Positions 2,858-51,119 of a DNA stretch of 64,000 nucleotides are shown piece by piece (position 1 is the first letter of the stretch; each line of letters starts with the position of its first letter). The notes under the pieces were generated by a model, which worked only from the letters and a program-made list of their open reading frames with translations, had not been told where the DNA came from and made no database searches. The stretch is from assembly GCA_964489885.1 (NCBI GenBank), contig CAZAZX010000001.1, positions 98,790 through 162,789 on the forward strand, written 5' to 3'. This stretch comes from an uncultured Lachnospiraceae bacterium (GTDB taxonomy: Bacteria; Bacillota; Clostridia; TANB77; CAG-508). The position numbers and the translations under genes are program-made.

Positions 2858-3259
2858 TTATTTACCTATATTTACTCCAACTATTCCCCCTATCATTCCA
2901 GCAATCGTTCCTAAAATCATCATTATTACTGCATTTAAATTTAAACTAAACCCTACTGATAATATACTTGATAATAAATATAAAACTATTATATATGTAA
3001 AGCCTATTATTCCTCCATTTATCATTCCATTTTTATGCAATTTTAATGTCGAAATTGATGTGCATATTAATATAGTAAATGCCGTTATTCCTATTATTAC
3101 TGGTGCAATATTTTTTTCTGGAAAATTTGTATATGTTAGAATAAGTGCAAAAAAGAATATAGATATCAAAGTAATCAACATTGACAAAGCCAATCCCTTT
3201 AGTATAACAAATAAATTACTATCTTTATCTATATTCGCATTTTCAATAACTTTGTTCAT
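2858..3259 (-). CDS. TIGR04086/YrzE-like 4-TM membrane protein
   Basis: Four hydrophobic segments, NGMINGGIIG and GMIGGIVGVN motifs. Start moved to ATG 3259, downstream of the AGGGGTG RBS. Confidence 0.7.
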   Translation of the reverse strand: MNKVIENANIDKDSNLFVILKGLALSMLITLISIFFFALILTYTNFPEKNIAPVIIGITAFTILICTSISTLKLHKNGMINGGIIGFTYIIVLYLLSSILSVGFSLNLNAVIMMILGTIAGMIGGIVGVNIGK

Positions 3260-3316
3260 CTCTCTCAACACCCCTTTATAAATTATATGGTTTGCTAATT
3301 GAGAATAGAACAAAAT

Positions 3317-4261
3317 TTATAAACTTTCTTCGCTATCTATCTTAGTTAAATTATCATTCCAACTGCTATAGTTCTCATCATTTTTGTGATTTTCTAAAAC
3401 ATTTTTTTCATTTAAATACTTACCAAGGTAGGCTGTTGCTTTTAAAGCTCCAGAATGATTCAAATGATCTCCTTCGTCTCTTGTTTCATTTTGCCAATCT
3501 ATATTAATTTCATCTTTAGCAATATTCATATCTAAAAATTCTATTCCTTCTTTATTTGCAAATTTTTCTACACCATTATGTCTTTCATAGTTCCAGTTTT
3601 TTACACTAGGTGTACTTAATATAATTAGCTTTGCATTATTATTTTCACAGTACTTATTTAAAAGTTTTAAATAGCATTTATTTACAAATGGTATTTCCTC
3701 AGCTTTATCCGAATATTGCATATAATTACTATCATCAGCAGAATCTATTTCATTTGAGTAAGTATATCCTTTGTTCACATCTGACCATGAATAATCAAAC
3801 TTTGGAACAAAATCGTATGCTTTTATTTTTTTACATCTACTATGATATTCACTTAATGGGAAAACATAGTTCACTATTTTTTCAAACGAGTTATCAAGCC
3901 CTAAATCTCTATAAATTGAATTTGATTCTAATATTACAAGCTTTGGATTTTGCTTTTTAAAAGCTTTATTTAAAAATATCATTGATTCTTGCAAGCATTG
4001 ATTGGGTGTGCCACAAATATAGCTGGTAAAACCATAGTCGTTCCATAATTTTAATGGAATTATTGCTGCAAATGATTCACTATCTCCAACAACCAAAGTA
4101 TCTATTGTATTTTCTTTTTCTCCCATAATTCCATTTGCTTTAGCATTATGAATTCCATACTCTACAGAATTTTTTTTAGGAATTACTATATATGTTAAAA
4201 TTATAATAAATACCAAAAGAATTGCTATAAATACTACTGATTTTATTATTTTCTTTTTCAC
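3317..4261 (-). CDS. membrane-anchored SGNH/GDSL-fold protein (DltD/PatB/AlgJ-like acyl-transfer partner)
   Basis: N-terminal TM, VGDSES (GDS nucleophile), C-terminal DEGDHLN. Last gene of the MBOAT operon. Confidence 0.75.
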   Translation of the reverse strand: MKKKIIKSVVFIAILLVFIIILTYIVIPKKNSVEYGIHNAKANGIMGEKENTIDTLVVGDSESFAAIIPLKLWNDYGFTSYICGTPNQCLQESMIFLNKAFKKQNPKLVILESNSIYRDLGLDNSFEKIVNYVFPLSEYHSRCKKIKAYDFVPKFDYSWSDVNKGYTYSNEIDSADDSNYMQYSDKAEEIPFVNKCYLKLLNKYCENNNAKLIILSTPSVKNWNYERHNGVEKFANKEGIEFLDMNIAKDEINIDWQNETRDEGDHLNHSGALKATAYLGKYLNEKNVLENHKNDENYSSWNDNLTKIDSEESL

Positions 4262-4273
4262 TTATTTTCCCCC

Positions 4274-5863
4274 TTAAAATTCTGCATACATTGGGTCAAC
4301 TGGAACATATCCATCTCCATATGCACCAAATACTATAATTATTAATATTAATGCATAAAATATTGACCATCTAAATATTATATTTTTCTTTGATAAAGCT
4401 TCTCTTATGTTTATTCCTTTCTCTTTTAAAATACTTATTATAAATACAACTACCAGCATAGTTATAACAATTAAAAAGTCATATCTGCCCATTCCAAAGC
4501 CTAAAATTGTTTTATTAAATATTGATTCTAATGAAAATTCAGAAATCATTTTTTTAAACATTTCTAATCCAGCTAAAAATCCATTAGCTCTAAAGAACAA
4601 CTCTCCAACTAAAACAAAACAAGTTGTTTTAATTATCTGCAAAACCTTATAATAAAAACTTTTTCTATCTATATGTAATTTAGTAGTAATCTTTTCAATA
4701 ATCGGTTCAAAAAATCTGCCAGTCATTATTAATACAAAATAATATAAGCCAAAGAATATATAATTCCAAGCTGAGCCATGCCAAATACCATTACATAGCC
4801 ATACTAAAAATAGTGCAATAGAACTTGAAATTAATGGTCCATAATAATTTCCCCATTTTTTTCTTGAAAAGGAAGTAAACTTTTTACATTTGTTTGTAAG
4901 AGAAACTGGATAAAAAATATAATCTCTAAACCATGCTCCTAAAGTAATATGCCATCTTTTCCAAAATTCTGATGTTGTCTTTGAGAAAAATGGCTGTCTA
5001 AAGTTTTCAGGCAATTTAACCCCAAATATCTCTCCTATACCTATAACAACATCAATAGTTCCTGAAAAATCCATATATAACTGTATTGTATATAAAATCA
5101 TACCAAGTGCAACGACTCCACCATCATAATAGCTATAATTATTAAACACATTTGCAACAAAAGAATTAAGTCTATCTGCAATTACTATCTTTTTCATTAA
5201 TCCCCAAAGTACCCTTTGCAAACCAAATGTAAGTCTTTCGTAAGTTACCTTTTCACACTTCCATAATGAATCTGCAATTTGAGAATACCTACTAATTGGG
5301 CCTTCCATCAATTTAGGGAAAAAGCCTATAAACAATGCTATCTTCGGTAAATTTTTATCTGCGACGATTTTTCCTTTATATACATCATAAATATATGCAA
5401 TTGCTTCCAAAGTATAAAAAGATATACCTATAGGCATAACTAAATGTGGAATATCAAATTGATATTCTATATTTAAAGTATGCATTAATGAATTAATATT
5501 AGTTGTTAAAAATGCGGAATACTTAAGAATAATTAACATTGCTAATAAGGCTATAATAGCTAAAACACAAAATATTTTTTGTCGTTTATTAAAATACGCC
5601 TTTACTTCTTTTTTCTTTTCTTTATCAATTTCTTTTAGTTTAGCTTTTTTCTTATTTTGTAAATAATTAAATGCTTGACCAAAAATGTACATTATCAATG
5701 TTGTTATAATCAAATATATAAGTAATTTTCCACTTATTGACCAAAAGAAAATATAACTTGATGCTAATAAAACCTTCCATCTATGTTTTTGAGGTACTAG
5801 ATTATATATTATTATTGTTAACGGCAAAAACACGCCTAAAAATAAAGCACTAAAATAATTCAT
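4274..5863 (-). CDS. MBOAT-family membrane-bound O-acyltransferase (DltB/AlgI/PatA-like)
   Basis: PIGISFYT, GPISRY, QLYMDFSG, ENFRQPFFS, EFWKRWHITL and GIWHG (catalytic His) motifs; multi-TM. Confidence 0.92.
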   Translation of the reverse strand: MNYFSALFLGVFLPLTIIIYNLVPQKHRWKVLLASSYIFFWSISGKLLIYLIITTLIMYIFGQAFNYLQNKKKAKLKEIDKEKKKEVKAYFNKRQKIFCVLAIIALLAMLIILKYSAFLTTNINSLMHTLNIEYQFDIPHLVMPIGISFYTLEAIAYIYDVYKGKIVADKNLPKIALFIGFFPKLMEGPISRYSQIADSLWKCEKVTYERLTFGLQRVLWGLMKKIVIADRLNSFVANVFNNYSYYDGGVVALGMILYTIQLYMDFSGTIDVVIGIGEIFGVKLPENFRQPFFSKTTSEFWKRWHITLGAWFRDYIFYPVSLTNKCKKFTSFSRKKWGNYYGPLISSSIALFLVWLCNGIWHGSAWNYIFFGLYYFVLIMTGRFFEPIIEKITTKLHIDRKSFYYKVLQIIKTTCFVLVGELFFRANGFLAGLEMFKKMISEFSLESIFNKTILGFGMGRYDFLIVITMLVVVFIISILKEKGINIREALSKKNIIFRWSIFYALILIIIVFGAYGDGYVPVDPMYAEF

Positions 5864-5864
5864 A

Positions 5865-6095
5865 CTATTCTTCTTCTTGTAACCTATTTATTAAATCCCA
5901 TATAGCTTTAGCTGAATTAAAGTTATCTGGTATAATTTCAACTGTAGGTATTTGTACATCAAATGTTTCCTCAATTTCTGCAACTAAAGATATTATTGCA
6001 AGAGAATCTAAATATCCCTCATCTATTAAAGTTGTACAATTTTCATAATCTACCTCTGAATCTATATCTTTTAAAATTTCTATTAATTCTTCCAT
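5865..6095 (-). CDS. acyl/aminoacyl carrier protein (DltC-like)
   Basis: 76 aa, acidic, GYLDSLAII phosphopantetheinylation Ser motif. Confidence 0.9.
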   Translation of the reverse strand: MEELIEILKDIDSEVDYENCTTLIDEGYLDSLAIISLVAEIEETFDVQIPTVEIIPDNFNSAKAIWDLINRLQEEE

Positions 6096-6109
6096 TTTTT
6101 ATCCTCCAT

Positions 6110-7264
6110 TTACATATTAAATTTATAAGTTTCTAAATCTTTTCTAAGTAACTCTATTCTTCCATCTTCGTTGATTTTTAATACCTGTGGTAAATTTCTA
6201 CTTAAAAATAAGGAAATTCCCTCTGTCATACAATAAGCACCAGTATTTTTAAAAATAAATGCATCACCTACTTTTAAATCGTTTACAGGATATTGTTTAA
6301 CTAAAATATCATTTATTGTACATAAAGAGCCACATACATTCCATTTTTCCGCATTTTCATTATCTCTTTTTGGATATACCTCACTCTTTGGAATTTTCAT
6401 AGCCATTGACTGTCCATAATAAACTAAATGATTCATTCCTCCATCTACTATGGCATATCTTTGATTTTTGTTTATCTTTTTATCTACTACTTTTGTAACA
6501 TATGTTCCACAAGTTGCGGCTATGCTTCGTCCAATTTCTAAATATACTTTTCCTTTAAATTGAATGCTGTTTACTATATTTGAAAATTCCTTTAAATATT
6601 CATCTTCATCAAATTCTTTATCTTTAAAATAATATACTGGAAAACCTGGTCCAAATTCTAATTCTTTTGCATCATAATCAAATTCATCGTGCAACTTTGA
6701 AATTACATTATCTGCATATTGAAATTCTCTTGCAATTATTTTTAGTGAATTCTTCTGTGTTCCAGAAAAATACTGTATTCCTATGAATTCCAAATTTGGA
6801 TAATCAGCTCTGTTTTTTATTATTTGCCTTAGTTCATCTTCATTTATTCCAAATTGATTTCCACTTGTAAGCCTTATAAGAATTTTTAATTTGCTATCAC
6901 ACTTTATGCTTTTAAAAAGTTCAAATTGTTCCATAGACTCAATTGTAAAATGTCTAAGATTTCCATTGTTTGTAATGATTTGTTTAATATGTTCTGGAGT
7001 CTTATATACACCAGAAATTAATACTTTATTTAAATCAACATTTTTTTCAGAACAAATATTAAATTCTCCAGGTGAACATACTTCAAATCTATCAATATAT
7101 TTTTCTATATCTTTTACAATAAAAGGATTAGCCTTAATTGCATAACATAAAGAAATATTTTTAGGTAAATTCTTTTTTAAATAATTTACTCTATTTTTTA
7201 AAGTATTAATATCAAATATATACAATGGTGTGTTATATGTATTAATTATTTTTTCTATATCCAA
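6110..7264 (-). CDS. PLP-dependent fold-type III decarboxylase (LysA/BtrK-like)
   Basis: TPLYIFD, YAIKAN (PLP lysine), EFGPGFP, EIGRSI, VDGGMNH, GSLCTIND, TGAY. Confidence 0.85.
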   Translation of the reverse strand: MDIEKIINTYNTPLYIFDINTLKNRVNYLKKNLPKNISLCYAIKANPFIVKDIEKYIDRFEVCSPGEFNICSEKNVDLNKVLISGVYKTPEHIKQIITNNGNLRHFTIESMEQFELFKSIKCDSKLKILIRLTSGNQFGINEDELRQIIKNRADYPNLEFIGIQYFSGTQKNSLKIIAREFQYADNVISKLHDEFDYDAKELEFGPGFPVYYFKDKEFDEDEYLKEFSNIVNSIQFKGKVYLEIGRSIAATCGTYVTKVVDKKINKNQRYAIVDGGMNHLVYYGQSMAMKIPKSEVYPKRDNENAEKWNVCGSLCTINDILVKQYPVNDLKVGDAFIFKNTGAYCMTEGISLFLSRNLPQVLKINEDGRIELLRKDLETYKFNM

Positions 7265-7276
7265 AACAACACCTCC

Positions 7277-8785
7277 TTACTTTATTAATGTATTTCTTAA
7301 AGCTTTTCTATCTATTTTACCATTTTTAGTAATTGGTAATTCATCTATTTGTTTTAAAATATTAGGTATCATAAAAACTGGGAGTTCTTTTTTAAGGTTA
7401 TTATGTAAAATATCCTTTGGAACATTTCCAACATAAAATGTACATAGTTTTTTCTTTTCTTCAAGATATATACAACATACCCTATCTACACCATCCATAT
7501 CATTAATTGTAGTTTCAATTTCCTCAAGCTCAATTCTATGCCCCATATGCTTAATTTGAAAATCTTTTCTTCCTGCAAAATATAATAAATCGTCATCTCC
7601 CATATATGCCATATCACCAGTTTTATATATTAAATCAATATATTTATCATTAAGCGGATTTTGTACAAATTTTTCTTTTGTCTTATTTAATTCATTATAA
7701 TATCCAAGTGCGAGTGCTGTACCCTTGACACAAATTTCTCCTATTTTATTTTTTTCTTTTACAAGTGTATTATTTTCGTCCAATAAAAATACTCTTTCAT
7801 TATCAAAATTGCTTCCTATAGGTATTTGTTTTTCATAAGGTAAACTTTTATCTATTACATGATATGTACAGTTGCAAGTTATTTCTGTTGGTCCATATAC
7901 ATTTACATAGTTAGCATCTGGTAAATATTTTATCCATTCTTTTAAGTGTTTTAATGGCATTACTTCGCCACTAAAAATAACTTTATTAATATTTTTAGGT
8001 GTTTTATATTCTAAGCCATGAAAAGTTGTTATTAAGCACAATGCCGAAACTGCCCAAATTAACGTTGTAGCTTTATTTTCATCTATATAATCTAGTAATT
8101 TTGCTGGCATTGAAAAAAATTTCTTTGGCACTATTAAAAGAGTTGCTCCTGTTTTTATACATGAATAAATATCCTTAACAGAAACATCAAAGTCAAATGG
8201 TGCTTGATTTGCTATTATATCGCTATTATTTATATTAAACTTATCTGTAAATATATCTATAAAATCAATTGTTGAACGATGGCTAATAAGTACACCCTTT
8301 GGTACACCTGTTGACCCTGATGTAAAATTAGCATATAAAGGATCTAAATCTAATAGTCTACTTCTAATTTCAAGCAATTTTTCTTCGTTAATTTTTGTAT
8401 TTTTTATTTCATCTATATCTAGAATTTTCTCTTTTGTTGCTAGTTGATTTGCAAGTTCTATATTATTTTTATCTGTAATTAAAAGTTCTGAATCTAATAC
8501 TTGTAATATTTTTTCAAGCCTTTTTGCTGGTAATCCAGGATTTAGTAATATATAAAATCCCCCTGAATACAATACCCCAAAAAAAGAATATAAGCAATTT
8601 ATACTCTTTTCCATTAATATCGGAATCGGTTTATTTATTTCTGTTTCATTTACTAAATAACTTCCAACTTTCTGACTGTTTTCTAGTAATTCTGAATATG
8701 TACAAGTTAGATTTTCTTCAATTACTGCAATTTTTTGTGGTAATTTTTTTGCTGTGTTTTCTAAATACTCTAATACATTTTTCAT
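7277..8785 (-). CDS. stand-alone amino acid adenylation enzyme (DltA-like A domain)
   Basis: FTSGSTGVPKG (A3), NQAPFDFDVS, FSGE, NVYGPTE, YKTGD, GRKDFQIKHMGHRIELEEIE, TKNGKIDRK (A10 Lys). Confidence 0.92.
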   Translation of the reverse strand: MKNVLEYLENTAKKLPQKIAVIEENLTCTYSELLENSQKVGSYLVNETEINKPIPILMEKSINCLYSFFGVLYSGGFYILLNPGLPAKRLEKILQVLDSELLITDKNNIELANQLATKEKILDIDEIKNTKINEEKLLEIRSRLLDLDPLYANFTSGSTGVPKGVLISHRSTIDFIDIFTDKFNINNSDIIANQAPFDFDVSVKDIYSCIKTGATLLIVPKKFFSMPAKLLDYIDENKATTLIWAVSALCLITTFHGLEYKTPKNINKVIFSGEVMPLKHLKEWIKYLPDANYVNVYGPTEITCNCTYHVIDKSLPYEKQIPIGSNFDNERVFLLDENNTLVKEKNKIGEICVKGTALALGYYNELNKTKEKFVQNPLNDKYIDLIYKTGDMAYMGDDDLLYFAGRKDFQIKHMGHRIELEEIETTINDMDGVDRVCCIYLEEKKKLCTFYVGNVPKDILHNNLKKELPVFMIPNILKQIDELPITKNGKIDRKALRNTLIK

Positions 8786-9009
8786 AGCATTATCCTTTCA
8801 CCGCAATAGTATATCACTAATTTTATAAAGTGACAACTAATCAAAAGGAATTATTGAAGAATTTTAGGGAAAATTAGTAACTAACACTTACATATCCACT
8901 TTTTATTATCTATTCTTTTTGTTTTTATTGTGAAAACAAACTAGTATAAATTAATCAAGACCAATTCAATTATGAATTGGCCTTGTGAAACAATTGTAAA
9001 GTGGTTCTC

Positions 9010-9333
9010 TTATAGACTTTCACAGGCCTTTTCAAGGCCTTTTCTAACTTCAGGGTTCCTTGCCGAAATAGCATAAACCGTCTCTAATGAACTGCCTCCA
9101 ACAATTGCCATACCTACGACCAGTCCATCTTCTGTTTTAGCAACAAGAACATCAGCAATTCCCATAAAGATTCCAGGAAGAACTTGGTCTATATACCATA
9201 CCAAATCAACCATATTTGGCTGGACATACCACGCTTGCATGAATAACGTCAAAAAAACTCCGGGCTCATCTTTATAATCAGAAACCCTAAAAATCCCAAC
9301 TACTACCTTTTTGTTATTTTCTTGCGATTCCAT
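9010..9333 (-). CDS. hypothetical protein (orphan; possible partial GNAT-like fold)
   Basis: 107-aa ORF with GGAGG RBS upstream; visibly less AT-rich than its flanks. Confidence 0.5.
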   Translation of the reverse strand: MESQENNKKVVVGIFRVSDYKDEPGVFLTLFMQAWYVQPNMVDLVWYIDQVLPGIFMGIADVLVAKTEDGLVVGMAIVGGSSLETVYAISARNPEVRKGLEKACESL

Positions 9334-47349: not shown

Positions 47350-48738
47350 TTACTGTTGTACTGTAACTTTTTCTTTTTCCTTTTTTTCTTCTTTGCTATG
47401 TGGATCATCTTCCCATAACTTATCTGCTGTTACCTTCCAATCTCTTGCTATATCATGACATTTAACACATAAGTCATGAACATCCTCAGGATGTGCTAAA
47501 TCTGTTGAATGAGCTCCACATCTATCAACCATTTCAGCTAATTTTCCTTCATTGTCTAGTAATGGACATGGTCTTAATAGATTACCATTAAATGGTTGAT
47601 TTTTTTGATATTCTCTAAATATTGGTTGTTTTAAAGTTTCTAATAAGCTCATATCTTTGACATTTGCATTTGAATAATGTATAAATACACATGGCTCAAC
47701 ATCACCATTTGCATTAATATGCATATAATGTTTACCTCCAGCAATACATCCACCAACGTATCTTCCATCATTCCAGAAATCTACTGTAAATAATGGCTTT
47801 GTTTTTCTATATTCTGCTAATTTATAGTACATATCTTCTCTTTGTTCAGGTGTTGTTAAAAGTTTGTTATCTGAGCCACAGCCAACTGGCATATAGTTGA
47901 AATACCATCCATATTTGCAACCTTTTTCAATCATTGTATCAAAATATTCTTCACTCATAATATATTCTGCATTTGCAGATGTAGCACAGGTTGAAAATCC
48001 AAATAGAATTCCATATTTCTTTAAGATATCCATAGCATTGATAACTTTTTGATAAGTACCTTTTCCTCTTCTCATATCTGTTGATTCTTCCGTTCCTTCA
48101 ACACTTATTGAAAATGATAAATTACCAACCTTTTGAACCTTTTGTGCAAATTCTTCATCAATTAATGTTGCATTTGTAAATGCAACAAATATACAATCAT
48201 TATGTTTCTCACATAATTTTAATATTTCGTCTTTTTTTACTAATGGCTCTCCACCAGTAAATAAGTACCAATAACATCCAATTTCTTTACCTTCTGTTAT
48301 AATTCTATCCATTAAATCAAAACCAAGGTTTAAGCTCTTTCCATAATCTGCTGCCCAGCATCCAGTACATCTTAAATTACATGCTGTTGTTGGGTCCATA
48401 ACAATTGCCCAAGGTGCTCCACAGTGCTCTTTTTCTTTAATTTCATGATTTCTTGATATTCCTTTAATTGCAGAATTTATAATAAAATTACATAAAAATT
48501 TCTCTAAAACACTTTGATCAATATCTTTTAACAAGTCTTTTAAATATTTGTTCCAGTTGTTATCCTTATCAGCAACAACTTTTTCCATAAACTTATATTG
48601 TGGTTCCCACATCTTATCCTTGTCAAATTTTTCAACATATTCTAGTAATTTTGGCAAATTCTTATCTGGATCTTCCTTAATCTTTTCAATGGCATGTTTA
48701 ATGCCAATTTCCATTGCCTTGTCTTTTATAGCTCCCAT
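47350..48738 (-). CDS. radical SAM protein with SPASM/Twitch-like C-terminal domain
   Basis: CNLRCTGC, FTGGEPL, GCIAGG...GDVEPCVF, NLLRPCP. Confidence 0.88.
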   Translation of the reverse strand: MGAIKDKAMEIGIKHAIEKIKEDPDKNLPKLLEYVEKFDKDKMWEPQYKFMEKVVADKDNNWNKYLKDLLKDIDQSVLEKFLCNFIINSAIKGISRNHEIKEKEHCGAPWAIVMDPTTACNLRCTGCWAADYGKSLNLGFDLMDRIITEGKEIGCYWYLFTGGEPLVKKDEILKLCEKHNDCIFVAFTNATLIDEEFAQKVQKVGNLSFSISVEGTEESTDMRRGKGTYQKVINAMDILKKYGILFGFSTCATSANAEYIMSEEYFDTMIEKGCKYGWYFNYMPVGCGSDNKLLTTPEQREDMYYKLAEYRKTKPLFTVDFWNDGRYVGGCIAGGKHYMHINANGDVEPCVFIHYSNANVKDMSLLETLKQPIFREYQKNQPFNGNLLRPCPLLDNEGKLAEMVDRCGAHSTDLAHPEDVHDLCVKCHDIARDWKVTADKLWEDDPHSKEEKKEKEKVTVQQ

Positions 48739-49460: not shown

Positions 49461-51119
49461 TTAATTAATTGCCTTATCCTTATAAAATCCCAATTTGCAT
49501 AGTGTTTTGTAGATTTTCTTGCCATAAGGTAGCATATATATTTCTTCCTTGTTAAATATTTTTAGAACTAAAAGTGCCAAAGTGTAAATTAACACAGCAA
49601 CTAAAAGTGCTATAGTTGTTGCTAACCTTTCTGCTATATAGACTTTTAACACAATATATATAGCATAAGAGCAAATTGACATCATAATTGTTGCAAGTAA
49701 TGGTTTTAAAATGAATTTTGTAAATCCTAAATTTAATTTTATATTTTTCTTTAAAACAGAAAATCCTATTGTAAAATGTATTATATGACAAACAACAGAT
49801 CCTATTGCTGCTCCACAAGCTCCAAGCCATGGTATAGGTACAAGTATTATATTTAATATGCATTTAACCGCAACTCCTATACCAAAAGCAGTTGCAGGTA
49901 CCATTACTTTTCCTATTCCCTGTAAAGCCCCATTCACAGTTTGCGCCAATACTGTGAATATAATTGTAAGAGAACTTATTTGTAAAATTAATTCACCTTG
50001 ATTTGCATTTGGAAATAATAAGTTCAAAATCGGTGCTGCAAATATAAACATTCCTATTGTACAAGGTAAACCTATTAACATAGTTACTAAAAGTGAAAAT
50101 GATACTCTTTTTTCAGCAGTTTCGCTATCTTTTTTTGCTCTTGCTGCAGATAAAGCAGGTACTAATGCTGTTGCAAAAGCAATATTAAATGACAAGGGTA
50201 ATGATGTTAATGTATCCACTTTTCCACTTAATATTCCGTATTGTGCTTTTGCTTCTGCTTCACTCATAAATGTCTTTAAACTTCTAACAACTGTAAATGA
50301 ATCTATATTCTTGTTAATAGCAGACATCATAGAGCTTAATGATATTGGTATTGAAACAGATAATATTCTTTTTACTATAGTTCCTACACTTTCCTGTTTC
50401 ACTTTTATTTGTGGGACTAAGTTTGCATTAATATCAGCCTTCCTAGTTTTATAAAACATATATAAATATGCAAAACTTAAAAATGTTGAAAATGTTGTTG
50501 CTAAATTTGCTGCAGCAGCCATAATTACAGTGTTTGAATTAGAAAATACTGCAATAACTGCAACAAATAAAATAGTTAAGGTTGTTTTAAATAATTGTTC
50601 TAATGTTTGTGAATTTGCAGTTGCCTTCATATTAGCTTTTCCATTAAAATACCCTCTTATTACAGAAGAAATTGAAACAAAAAATATTGATGGTGATAAT
50701 GCAACTAATGTTAATTCAGCTTCAGGTATTTGTAAAAACACATTTGATATATATCTTGCACCAAAGAACAGAATTAAAGTTCCACATAAACCAATTAAAG
50801 CAAATGTTGCAAATGCAATTTTAAATATTCTGTGTGCACCTTTATTATCTCCAATTGCAGTTCTTTCTGAAACGAGTTTTGAAATTGCATTTGGGACACC
50901 TATTGATGAAATAGTAAGTAATAGTGCATATATTTGATATCCACTATTGCAAATTGCATTTCCTGTATCTCCAAAACCTGGTTTATTAGTTAAATATAAT
51001 TTATAAACTAAACCAAGTATTTTAATTAGCACTTGTGAAAGCATTAAAGCTAAAACAGCCTGCATAAAACTTTCTCTTTTATGTGATGTTTCATTATTTT
51101 GCTTTTTGCTCAATAGCAT
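49461..51119 (-). CDS. MOP-superfamily flippase (SpoVB/YabM/MurJ-like)
   Basis: IKILGLVYK, GVPNAISKLVS, IRGYFNG, A.SQTLEQ, LQGIGK; about 14 TMs. Confidence 0.88.
   Translation of the reverse strand: MLLSKKQNNETSHKRESFMQAVLALMLSQVLIKILGLVYKLYLTNKPGFGDTGNAICNSGYQIYALLLTISSIGVPNAISKLVSERTAIGDNKGAHRIFKIAFATFALIGLCGTLILFFGARYISNVFLQIPEAELTLVALSPSIFFVSISSVIRGYFNGKANMKATANSQTLEQLFKTTLTILFVAVIAVFSNSNTVIMAAAANLATTFSTFLSFAYLYMFYKTRKADINANLVPQIKVKQESVGTIVKRILSVSIPISLSSMMSAINKNIDSFTVVRSLKTFMSEAEAKAQYGILSGKVDTLTSLPLSFNIAFATALVPALSAARAKKDSETAEKRVSFSLLVTMLIGLPCTIGMFIFAAPILNLLFPNANQGELILQISSLTIIFTVLAQTVNGALQGIGKVMVPATAFGIGVAVKCILNIILVPIPWLGACGAAIGSVVCHIIHFTIGFSVLKKNIKLNLGFTKFILKPLLATIMMSICSYAIYIVLKVYIAERLATTIALLVAVLIYTLALLVLKIFNKEEIYMLPYGKKIYKTLCKLGFYKDKAIN

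Follow-up and report, generated by a model that had tools for sequence, protein, structure and literature searches.

A Five-Gene Cassette in an Uncultured Lachnospiraceae Bacterium

We analyzed a stretch of 64,000 nucleotides of contig CAZAZX010000001.1 (assembly GCA_964489885.1) from an uncultured Lachnospiraceae bacterium, referred to here at its full length as the window. At positions 3317-8785, the minus strand of the window carries a tightly packed operon of five genes that resembles the D-alanylation (Dlt) system of Gram-positive envelopes and includes, in addition, a pyridoxal 5'-phosphate (PLP) decarboxylase. A preliminary description of this DNA had listed these genes as encoding an adenylation domain, a fold-III decarboxylase, a carrier protein, an MBOAT, and an SGNH protein; all five ORFs lie where it placed them, four of the five families were confirmed by Pfam and NCBIfam matches, and the fifth assignment by structure modeling (see below). 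The genes, with the one-letter symbols used for gene orders, are:

7277-8785, minus strand: stand-alone adenylation enzyme (A), 502 aa; AMP-binding / AA-adenyl-dom (Pfam/NCBIfam)
6110-7264, minus strand: PLP decarboxylase (D) of fold III (alanine-racemase fold), 384 aa; Orn_Arg_deC_N + Orn_DAP_Arg_deC
5865-6095, minus strand: carrier protein (C), 76 aa; PP-binding (Pfam/NCBIfam)
4274-5863, minus strand: MBOAT (M), 529 aa; MBOAT family match (Pfam/NCBIfam)
3317-4261, minus strand: predicted membrane-anchored SGNH-fold protein (S), 314 aa; AlphaFold model and Foldseek

In the order A/D/C/M/S the intergenic gaps are 12, 14, 1, and 12 nt. The gene content and order, their conservation, the fold assignments, the retained catalytic residues, and the exclusion of the proteins from the DltA, DltB, DltC, and LysA families are established directly. 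We argue below that the cassette probably decarboxylates a carrier-bound acidic amino acid and exports the product to the cell envelope.

Conservation of the Cassette

The cassette was found in metagenome-assembled genomes (MAGs) of uncultured Clostridia, a Clostridium sp., and Bacilli (L001-L004), on contigs encoding close homologues (L007-L011), and in 80 metagenome loci, most of them from the human gut. Grouping the metagenomic and MAG loci by decarboxylase identity (80%) left 51 clusters, 34 of which have enough flanking sequence to be judged. Decarboxylase, carrier, and MBOAT genes co-occur in all 34 of these informative loci, distributed over the following gene orders:

A-D-C-M-S: 24 loci
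A-D-C-M-S-S: 2 loci
M-S-A-D-C: 2 loci
A-D-C-M: 2 loci
other arrangements: 4 loci

The linkage of the five genes is a conserved module, beyond what chance would produce. Directly upstream of the cassette, an OmpR-type response regulator and a histidine kinase are encoded in 13 of 35 informative loci. Because an OmpR-type two-component system adjoins the cassette in about a third of its relatives, control by envelope stress is suggested; the two-component system of the relatives is absent from the window. The genes around the cassettes are mostly unrelated from locus to locus: among 252 flanking open reading frames (ORFs) of the non-redundant loci, the only recurrent genes encode an ACPS-type phosphopantetheinyl transferase (four loci), GtrA (three loci), and ABC transporter ATPases (eight ORFs). 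In some Bacilli MAGs, an AcpS-type 4'-phosphopantetheinyl transferase is encoded immediately downstream of the cassette (L003 12913-13272; L004 6581-6925, on the opposite strand), which fits a dedicated carrier protein in need of priming.

Adenylation Enzyme and Its Specificity Code

The specificity code was read by alignment to GrsA (1AMU) and to the DltA proteins of B. subtilis and B. cereus, with the GrsA and DltA sequences checked against PDB entries 1AMU, 3E7W, and 3DHV. The code of the window's enzyme is DVKIISVCNK, where Asp200 corresponds to position 235 of GrsA, Lys204 (codon 8174-8176) to 239, Ser272 to 301, Cys304 and Asn305 to 330 and 331, and Lys490 to 517. The observation in the preliminary description that FDVSVKD replaces the FDLSVMD of DltA, placing a Lys at GrsA position 239, is therefore correct, and this Lys is invariant in 39 non-redundant cassettes. 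Over the same 39 cassettes the code is D-V-K-[I/T/V]-[L/I/M]-S-[L/V/I]-C-N-K, with D235, V236, K239, S301, C330, N331, and K517 invariant, and it departs from the DltA code, DLMT(M/L)CTVAK, at five positions including Met239Lys and Cys301Ser. Given these invariant positions and the contrast with the DltA code, the family reads as one with a single conserved specificity, other than that of DltA. The window's enzyme is a DltA paralogue that scores far below the cut-offs of the DltA models (306 bits for NF003417, cut-off 476; 289 bits for TIGR01734, cut-off 560). The only public NCBI label of the cassette enzymes is “amino acid adenylation domain-containing protein.”

An invariant basic residue in the pocket suggests that the loaded substrate would retain a second carboxylate, which in turn favors decarboxylation after loading. 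The pocket is lined by bulky I/T278, L299, and L322, suggesting that it is small. It matches the Ser code DVWHLSLIDK at six of ten positions, with Trp239 replaced by Lys in the cassette; the Glu code DAKDLGVVDK is a poorer match. For a pocket that is small and basic at its floor, Asp would be the best-fitting substrate.

The Decarboxylase and Its Relatives

The decarboxylase has the two-domain fold-III architecture (structure model, pLDDT 94.2), with the PLP-binding Lys44 in the motif AIKAN (codon 7133-7135). Among 111 diverse full-length members of the family, Lys44, Glu243 and Arg246 (LEIGRS), Gly275-Gly276, Cys315 and Asp319 (LCTIND), and Tyr344 are conserved in at least 95%, and Asp274 in at least 90%. 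Judged by its sequence, the enzyme is not LysA: it scores 176 bits against the LysA model TIGR01048 (cut-off 298), and the Arg and Tyr of the “DLIRPxxY” specificity helix of LysA, which we take to be the residues that bind the distal carboxylate of diaminopimelate (DAP), are replaced by Tyr and Ser in the alignment. The CTIND sequence singled out in the preliminary description is present, LCTIND aligning with ICETGD of Aquifex LysA. Local signatures held in common with BtrK are GTQ, LCT..D, and VDGGM.H...G.SM. A deletion of ~15 residues (RLTSG--NQFG), specific to this decarboxylase family, falls in a loop close to the active site. The family is large, with 298 clusters when members found at E <= 1e-30 are grouped at 50% identity.

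A family profile built from the 111 members was scored against five reference enzymes:

Bacillus plasmid decarboxylase L092 (cluster with a carrier protein): 277 bits
BtrK: 244 bits
Bacillus plasmid decarboxylase L093 (A-D-C order): 233 bits
SbnH: 217 bits
LysA (Aquifex): 206 bits

The top Foldseek match of the structure model is also BtrK (7ru7; E 5e-31, TMq 0.86), at ~24% identity. BtrK is thus probably the nearest characterized relative, by margins that are small but point in the same direction in profile and in fold, which lends modest support to the on-carrier reading of the preliminary description. The BtrK precedent invoked there is real, the PDB entry 7ru7 being titled “L-glutamyl-[BtrI acyl-carrier protein] decarboxylase.”

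One gut-metagenome contig (L052 6992-8416) has a sense codon in place of the TGA stop between the D and C genes, giving an in-frame decarboxylase-carrier fusion of 474 aa; this is a single case, and the close relatives L045 and L047 retain the stop. Another protein, P0237 (1046 aa), joins a decarboxylase of this family to a long Ala/Ser/Thr-rich low-complexity linker, a transmembrane (TM) segment, and Ig-like/Rib and transglutaminase-core domains. It was rejected as a fusion to a carrier or an MBOAT, its extra part being uninformative on mechanism, and represents either an unusual fusion or an artefact of gene calling.

More distant decarboxylases were considered as well. A scan of genome contigs with the decarboxylase as the single query gave only six loci, two of which belong to Halobacillus (28% identity); these two were rejected as instances of the same system and resemble the SbnH case, with two ORFs of ~650 aa beside the decarboxylases that were read by eye as siderophore synthetases of the IucA/IucC type. 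On plasmids, tblastn with the decarboxylase retrieved only relatives at no more than 28.6% identity. Two plasmids of the Bacillus cereus group, NZ_CP043831.1 (L093 5522-9659) and NZ_CP036072.1 (L092 6956-14581), encode an adenylate-forming enzyme, a decarboxylase, a phosphopantetheine-binding protein, and an acyl-CoA dehydrogenase. L093 has the same A-D-C order as the cassette; L092 has an additional ATP-grasp gene and acpS, and its decarboxylase is labeled lysA in RefSeq. By gene content, both look like uncharacterized thiotemplated-decarboxylation pathways; they were rejected as the same system and served as carrier-linked outgroups.

Carrier Protein, MBOAT, and SGNH Protein

The carrier has a conserved phosphopantetheine site at Ser31 in LDSL (codon 6003-6005). 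With 38 bits against the DltC model NF003464 (cut-off 68) and 25 bits against TIGR01688 (cut-off 52), it is a generic PP-binding domain and not a DltC equivalog.

The predicted catalytic residue of the MBOAT is His362 in GIWHG (codon 4778-4780), which aligns with the His of DltB. The protein scores 156 bits against the DltB model TIGR04091 (cut-off 375) and is ~110 aa longer than DltB, its C-terminal extension closing with a conserved PMYAEF (4277-4294) that contains Tyr526. In all cassettes the C-terminus is [P/F]xYxx[F/Y], with FIYAQF or FVYMQF in divergent variants. The motif FxYxxF is an acyl shuttle, located on DltX in the Dlt pathway and fused C-terminally in PatA and other MBOATs that use acetyl-CoA and lack a carrier protein (PMC12148441). 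We read the C-terminal motif of the cassette MBOAT as such a fused shuttle, with Tyr526 as its putative acyl-bearing residue. Upstream of the adenylation gene, no ORF of at least 20 aa bears the motif, i.e., no DltX-like microprotein was detected.

The 314-aa protein has no match in Pfam or NCBIfam, DltD models included, and a PDB sequence search returned only chance matches to designed proteins. Its AlphaFold model (pLDDT 93.5) has an N-terminal helix at residues 2-26 and matches TesA and GDSL esterases in Foldseek with a probability of 1.0; DltD was not found in the best 50 matches. Ser61 of the GDS motif (codon 4079-4081) and His266 (codon 3464-3466) are invariant in 57 homologues, as are Gly59 and Asn268, with Asp60 nearly so, and 31 of the 57 weakly match Lipase_GDSL_2. 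There is accordingly good evidence from modeling for an SGNH fold behind an N-terminal TM anchor, and the SGNH call made by eye for this protein was right. The family is small, with 87 matches, and the few that are named at source are all “hypothetical protein.” Tandem SGNH paralogues occur in some cassettes (L003 11008-12920; L086 10035-12006). In the divergent cassettes L073, L076, L082, L088, and L078, the MBOAT partner is a protein of 325-377 aa without a Pfam match, in which “GTSHGK” or “IG(A/S)S” replaces GDS.

MBOAT and SGNH protein together have the make-up of an MBOAT-SGNH acyltransferase, namely the His, the C-terminal Tyr motif, and a predicted extracytoplasmic SGNH partner with its Ser; catalysis by the pair is a prediction from sequence and model. 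Of the dlt-like export first proposed, the MBOAT and SGNH pair stands, whereas the DltB/DltX/DltD type does not, its place being taken by a fused C-terminal Tyr motif and an unclassified SGNH family.

Decarboxylation on a Carrier Protein as the Proposed Mechanism

Decarboxylation of a carrier-bound amino acid by a fold-III enzyme is known from four pathways (to butirosin, closthioamide, vicenistatin, and fluvirucin), and all four attach the amino acid to the carrier by the carboxyl of its side chain (PMC11350588, PMC7183216, PMC11284099, PMC7857480, which are joint sources for these precedents). BtrJ/I/K convert Glu to gamma-aminobutyrate (GABA) on the carrier, and CtaD/E/F of a Clostridium convert Asp to beta-alanine, CtaF being inactive on free substrates (PMC7183216, PMC11350588). 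VinN/L/O, the second precedent named in the preliminary description and likewise a real one, and FlvN/L/O produce beta-aminoacyl-carriers from (methyl)Asp with an adenylation domain as the loader (PMC11284099).

By analogy, we propose that the cassette tethers Asp (favored) or Glu through its side chain, decarboxylates the carrier-bound residue to give beta-alanyl or GABA, and passes the product from the MBOAT Tyr to the SGNH Ser and on to an envelope acceptor; we give this reading a probability of roughly 60%. The amino acid activated by the adenylation enzyme would be acidic, in all likelihood L-Asp, with Glu as the alternative and with Lys239 holding the carboxylate that is not activated, and the enzyme would load it via its side-chain carboxyl onto the Ser31-phosphopantetheine of the carrier. 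Because such a tether leaves a free alpha-amino-acid head, it makes alpha-decarboxylation possible, and the same tether is required here. The cytoplasmic PLP enzyme would then strip the free alpha-carboxyl, as BtrK, CtaF, VinO, and FlvO do, to give beta-alanyl-S-carrier, or gamma-aminobutyryl-S-carrier from Glu. His362 of the MBOAT would pass the acyl group across the membrane to the protein's own Tyr526, following the DltB and PatA mechanisms, and the extracytoplasmic Ser61 of the SGNH protein would take it up and esterify an acceptor, so that the surface would gain positive charge. Candidate acceptors are teichoic acid, another wall glycopolymer, peptidoglycan, or a glycolipid.

Within this on-carrier model we favor beta-alanyl (~45%) over GABA (~15%). 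GABA thioesters lactamise readily, a problem from which beta-alanyl thioesters are free. In the butirosin pathway, the GABA amine is protected by a gamma-glutamyl cap. A butirosin paper (Li et al. 2005) mentions “possible protective-group chemistry” in its title. The cassette has no enzyme for such protection; this absence, the lactamisation of GABA thioesters, and the small basic pocket together favor beta-alanyl.

Several points weigh against the proposal. Substrate, loading regiochemistry, product, and acceptor are all assigned by analogy. The adenylation enzyme is nearer to DltA and to the alpha-amino-acid domains of nonribosomal peptide synthetases such as GrsA (E 1e-58 to 1e-67) than to the beta-amino-acid enzymes HitB, IdnL1, and CmiS6 (~1e-46), and its alpha-type resemblance therefore lends side-chain activation no support from similarity. 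The preliminary description had treated Lys239 as a feature of domains that activate acidic amino acids; the position holds, but as a sign of an acidic substrate it is suggestive only, given that canonical Asp codes put the Lys at position 278, not 239. For the decarboxylase, phmmer equates SbnH, BtrK, and LysA as relatives (all E 1e-25 to 1e-27), and the score margins that group it with BtrK are modest. Finally, no polymer-synthesis gene recurs among the 252 flanking ORFs, so the acceptor cannot be read from gene context. The only contextual hint is at L078 35-2576, upstream of an M-S-A-D-C cassette, where a TagF-like CDP-glycerol glycerophosphotransferase, an IspD/TarI-like cytidylyltransferase, and an NAD-dependent epimerase, whose genes abut the cassette, hint at an acceptor of the teichoic-acid type.

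The alternatives differ mainly in the role they give to the PLP enzyme. It might act first, on a free metabolite (Asp to beta-alanine, or meso-DAP to Lys), leaving the adenylation enzyme to load the product for export by the MBOAT and SGNH proteins. Free substrates are usual for the characterized fold-III decarboxylases, the phmmer equidistance to LysA, SbnH, and BtrK is compatible with this order, and the contact between decarboxylase and carrier is itself deduced by analogy. We nevertheless regard it as unlikely: an invariant Lys239 is ill-suited to a substrate already stripped of its second carboxylate, LysA's Arg and Tyr have no counterpart in the alignment, and carrier-linked enzymes are closest in both profile and fold. 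A carrier-bound step is also indicated by the strict order A-D-C and by the one D-C fusion; CtaF, for its part, is unable to use free substrates (PMC7183216). It is quite unlikely, too, that the enzyme performs some other PLP chemistry on an alpha-linked aminoacyl-carrier, either epimerisation from L to D or beta-decarboxylation of alpha-aspartyl to alanyl, with an ordinary D- or L-aminoacyl ester being exported. The alpha-type look of the adenylation enzyme would suit this, as would the fold held in common with alanine racemase (Pfam Ala_racemase_N, 31 bits, over its cut-off), and the ~15-residue deletion near the active site could alter the chemistry. The two-domain decarboxylase architecture is kept, however, and the Cys315/Asp319 loop and other decarboxylase residues are invariant; we know of no fold-III enzyme of the decarboxylase subfamily that carries out beta-decarboxylation or carrier-bound epimerisation.

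Decarboxylation on the carrier could also involve another substrate. Were meso- or LL-DAP loaded by one alpha-carboxyl and its distal carboxyl removed on the carrier, the product would be a lysyl group, which is doubly cationic. This would need no side-chain activation and would suit an alpha-type adenylation enzyme, Lys239 could bind the distal carboxylate, and the decarboxylase shares its ancestry with DAP decarboxylases (PMC7857480). We consider it very unlikely in view of the small pocket indicated by the bulky I/T278, L299, and L322, a code resembling that for Ser, and the loss of the aligned LysA Arg and Tyr; with free lysine at hand, such a detour would be without evident benefit. Least credible is an ordinary D-alanylation operon with an unrelated passenger decarboxylase from lysine biosynthesis. 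DltA, DltB, and DltC are indeed among the top named NCBIfam matches of the adenylation enzyme, MBOAT, and carrier, but the scores lie far under the equivalog cut-offs, five positions of the code differ (Met239Lys and Cys301Ser among them), DltX and any match to a DltD model are missing, and the decarboxylase, which is not LysA, is present in 34 of 34 informative loci.

Comparison With Known Systems

With Dlt (DltABCD/DltX), the cassette has in common a stand-alone adenylation domain, a small carrier, an MBOAT, a Tyr acyl shuttle, an SGNH transferase, and, as proposed here, an extracytoplasmic polymer as the target, and Dlt proteins are the nearest named families for its adenylation enzyme, carrier, and MBOAT. 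The departure from canonical dltABCD noted in the preliminary description is nonetheless upheld by the scores against the Dlt models, by a code with Lys239 and Ser301, and by the lack of a DltX gene. A PLP decarboxylase gene lies between the A and C genes, the shuttle motif is fused to a longer MBOAT, and the SGNH partner is not recognizably DltD.

The O-acetylation systems PatA/PatB, AlgI/AlgJ/AlgX, and those of the WssH type resemble the cassette in their MBOAT, with extra C-terminal helices and an end of the FxYxxF type, and in their separate SGNH transferase (PMC12148441). They differ in using acetyl-CoA without a carrier, an adenylation enzyme, or a decarboxylase, whereas every cassette has a carrier gene, which in the commonest order immediately precedes that of the MBOAT. 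In the window's clade, moreover, the first residue of the motif is Pro, not Phe. Since the carrier is part of the cassette as in Dlt and the shuttle is fused as in PatA/AlgI, the cassette appears to be a hybrid of Dlt-like carrier dependence and a PatA/AlgI-type shuttle, one that is not described in PMC12148441.

The other half of the cassette corresponds to BtrI/J/K, CtaD/E/F, VinN/L/O, and FlvN/L/O, each of which combines a loading enzyme, a stand-alone carrier, and a fold-III PLP decarboxylase. Like BtrK, CtaF, VinO, and FlvO, the cassette decarboxylase has intact catalytic residues and is encoded beside a carrier and a loading enzyme. These pathways feed secondary-metabolite assembly, however, BtrJ and CtaD are ATP-grasp enzymes, and none is tied to an MBOAT/SGNH pair. 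An exosortase-A-associated ligase/decarboxylase pair (TIGR03098/TIGR03099, uncharacterized) likewise joins an AMP-forming ligase to a fold-III decarboxylase in an exopolysaccharide context. The cassette proteins match these models over their full length, at 193 bits for TIGR03098 (cut-off 592) and 174 bits for TIGR03099 (cut-off 478); the cassette differs in having no exosortase/PEP-CTERM context and in occurring in other taxa, and to our knowledge the pair has no MBOAT/SGNH link. In AlmEFG, which modifies Vibrio cholerae lipid A with glycine, a DltA-like enzyme whose specificity has shifted to another amino acid works with a carrier to add positive charge to the envelope. Its transferase AlmG, unlike that of the cassette, is no MBOAT; AlmEFG lacks a decarboxylase and acts on Gram-negative lipid A. 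Neither the literature searched nor the curated families (Pfam, NCBIfam) yielded a description of this gene combination, or of any carrier-dependent MBOAT that has its shuttle fused. Thiotemplated decarboxylation and MBOAT-SGNH envelope acylation each have precedents; their combination appears to be new.

D-alanylation by Dlt is the standard control of surface charge in Gram-positive bacteria and affects resistance to cationic peptides and antibiotics, autolysis, and host signaling. The present module is widespread in gut Firmicutes, where its proteins, if named publicly at all, carry generic names. If our proposal is right, it would be a second chemistry for tuning surface charge, in abundant and mostly uncultured Clostridia of the human gut. 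It would tie thiotemplated decarboxylation, so far confined to antibiotic pathways, to cell-envelope modification for the first time, and would provide the first MBOAT with a fused shuttle (PatA/AlgI) that is fed by a carrier protein instead of acyl-CoA. The general statement, that gut Clostridia and related Bacilli place beta-alanyl (or gamma-aminobutyryl) esters on a wall or membrane glycopolymer via on-carrier decarboxylation of Asp or Glu and an MBOAT with a built-in Tyr shuttle, often under two-component control, is a more tentative one, for which we would put the odds somewhat short of even. Such esters would be a cationic envelope modification that has gone unrecognized and is chemically more stable than D-alanyl esters, with probable effects on cationic-peptide resistance and host recognition.

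Transcription Signals and Other Features of the Window

Around the operon we noted the following features, among which the promoter and terminator calls are consensus matches only:

8808-8836, minus strand: promoter-like site TTGTCA-17-TATACT, TG-extended; the A gene starts 23 nt downstream
8956-8985: terminator-like hairpin ending the preceding upstream gene
2858-3313, minus strand: DUF3792/TIGR04086 membrane protein gene (family match)
2789-2823: next terminator-like hairpin, past the DUF3792 gene

Because the hairpin at 2789-2823 is the sole candidate terminator, the DUF3792 gene may be co-transcribed with the operon. It is probably not part of the cassette, beside which it is absent in every other locus. 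A 107-aa ORF between dnaJ and the operon (9010-9333, minus strand), with a G+C content above that of the operon and no match in Pfam or NCBIfam, was also rejected as part of the module, since it occurs near no other cassette. The G+C content is ~26% over the operon and its low-coordinate flank. The remainder of the window consists of low-G+C, Clostridia-like chromosomal housekeeping genes, including hrcA-grpE-dnaK-dnaJ, recA, and the gene for RNase Y.

The gene for DnaE (DNA polymerase III alpha) is split on the minus strand (34149-37659) into two overlapping ORFs, one with the PHP/NTPase part (35962-37659) and one with the finger/HhH/OB part (34149-35984). Near the junction, at 35960-35990, the conserved motif GLLKMDFLGLRTLT is disrupted, by eye, through an extra base in gaagaattgCggactt; the frameshift is either real or an error of sequencing or assembly. 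Housekeeping genes also surround the genes for a Replic_Relax protein (minus strand, 55854-56795) and for a coupling protein of the TraG/TraD type (plus strand, 53425-55755), which together resemble part, or a remnant, of an integrated mobilisable element.

Possible surface-glycan genes, none of them adjacent to the operon, encode a radical-SAM/SPASM protein (47350-48738), a flippase resembling Polysacc_synt/MurJ (49461-51119), and a protein like the Wzy_C O-antigen ligases (60871-62205). Further surface or secreted proteins have cadherin-like repeats (22604-24028), SH3_3 and dockerin type I domains (24046-25779), and G5, SH3_3, and glucosaminidase domains (40051-41289); of these features, the dockerin points to an organism that is cellulosome-type or Ruminococcaceae-like.

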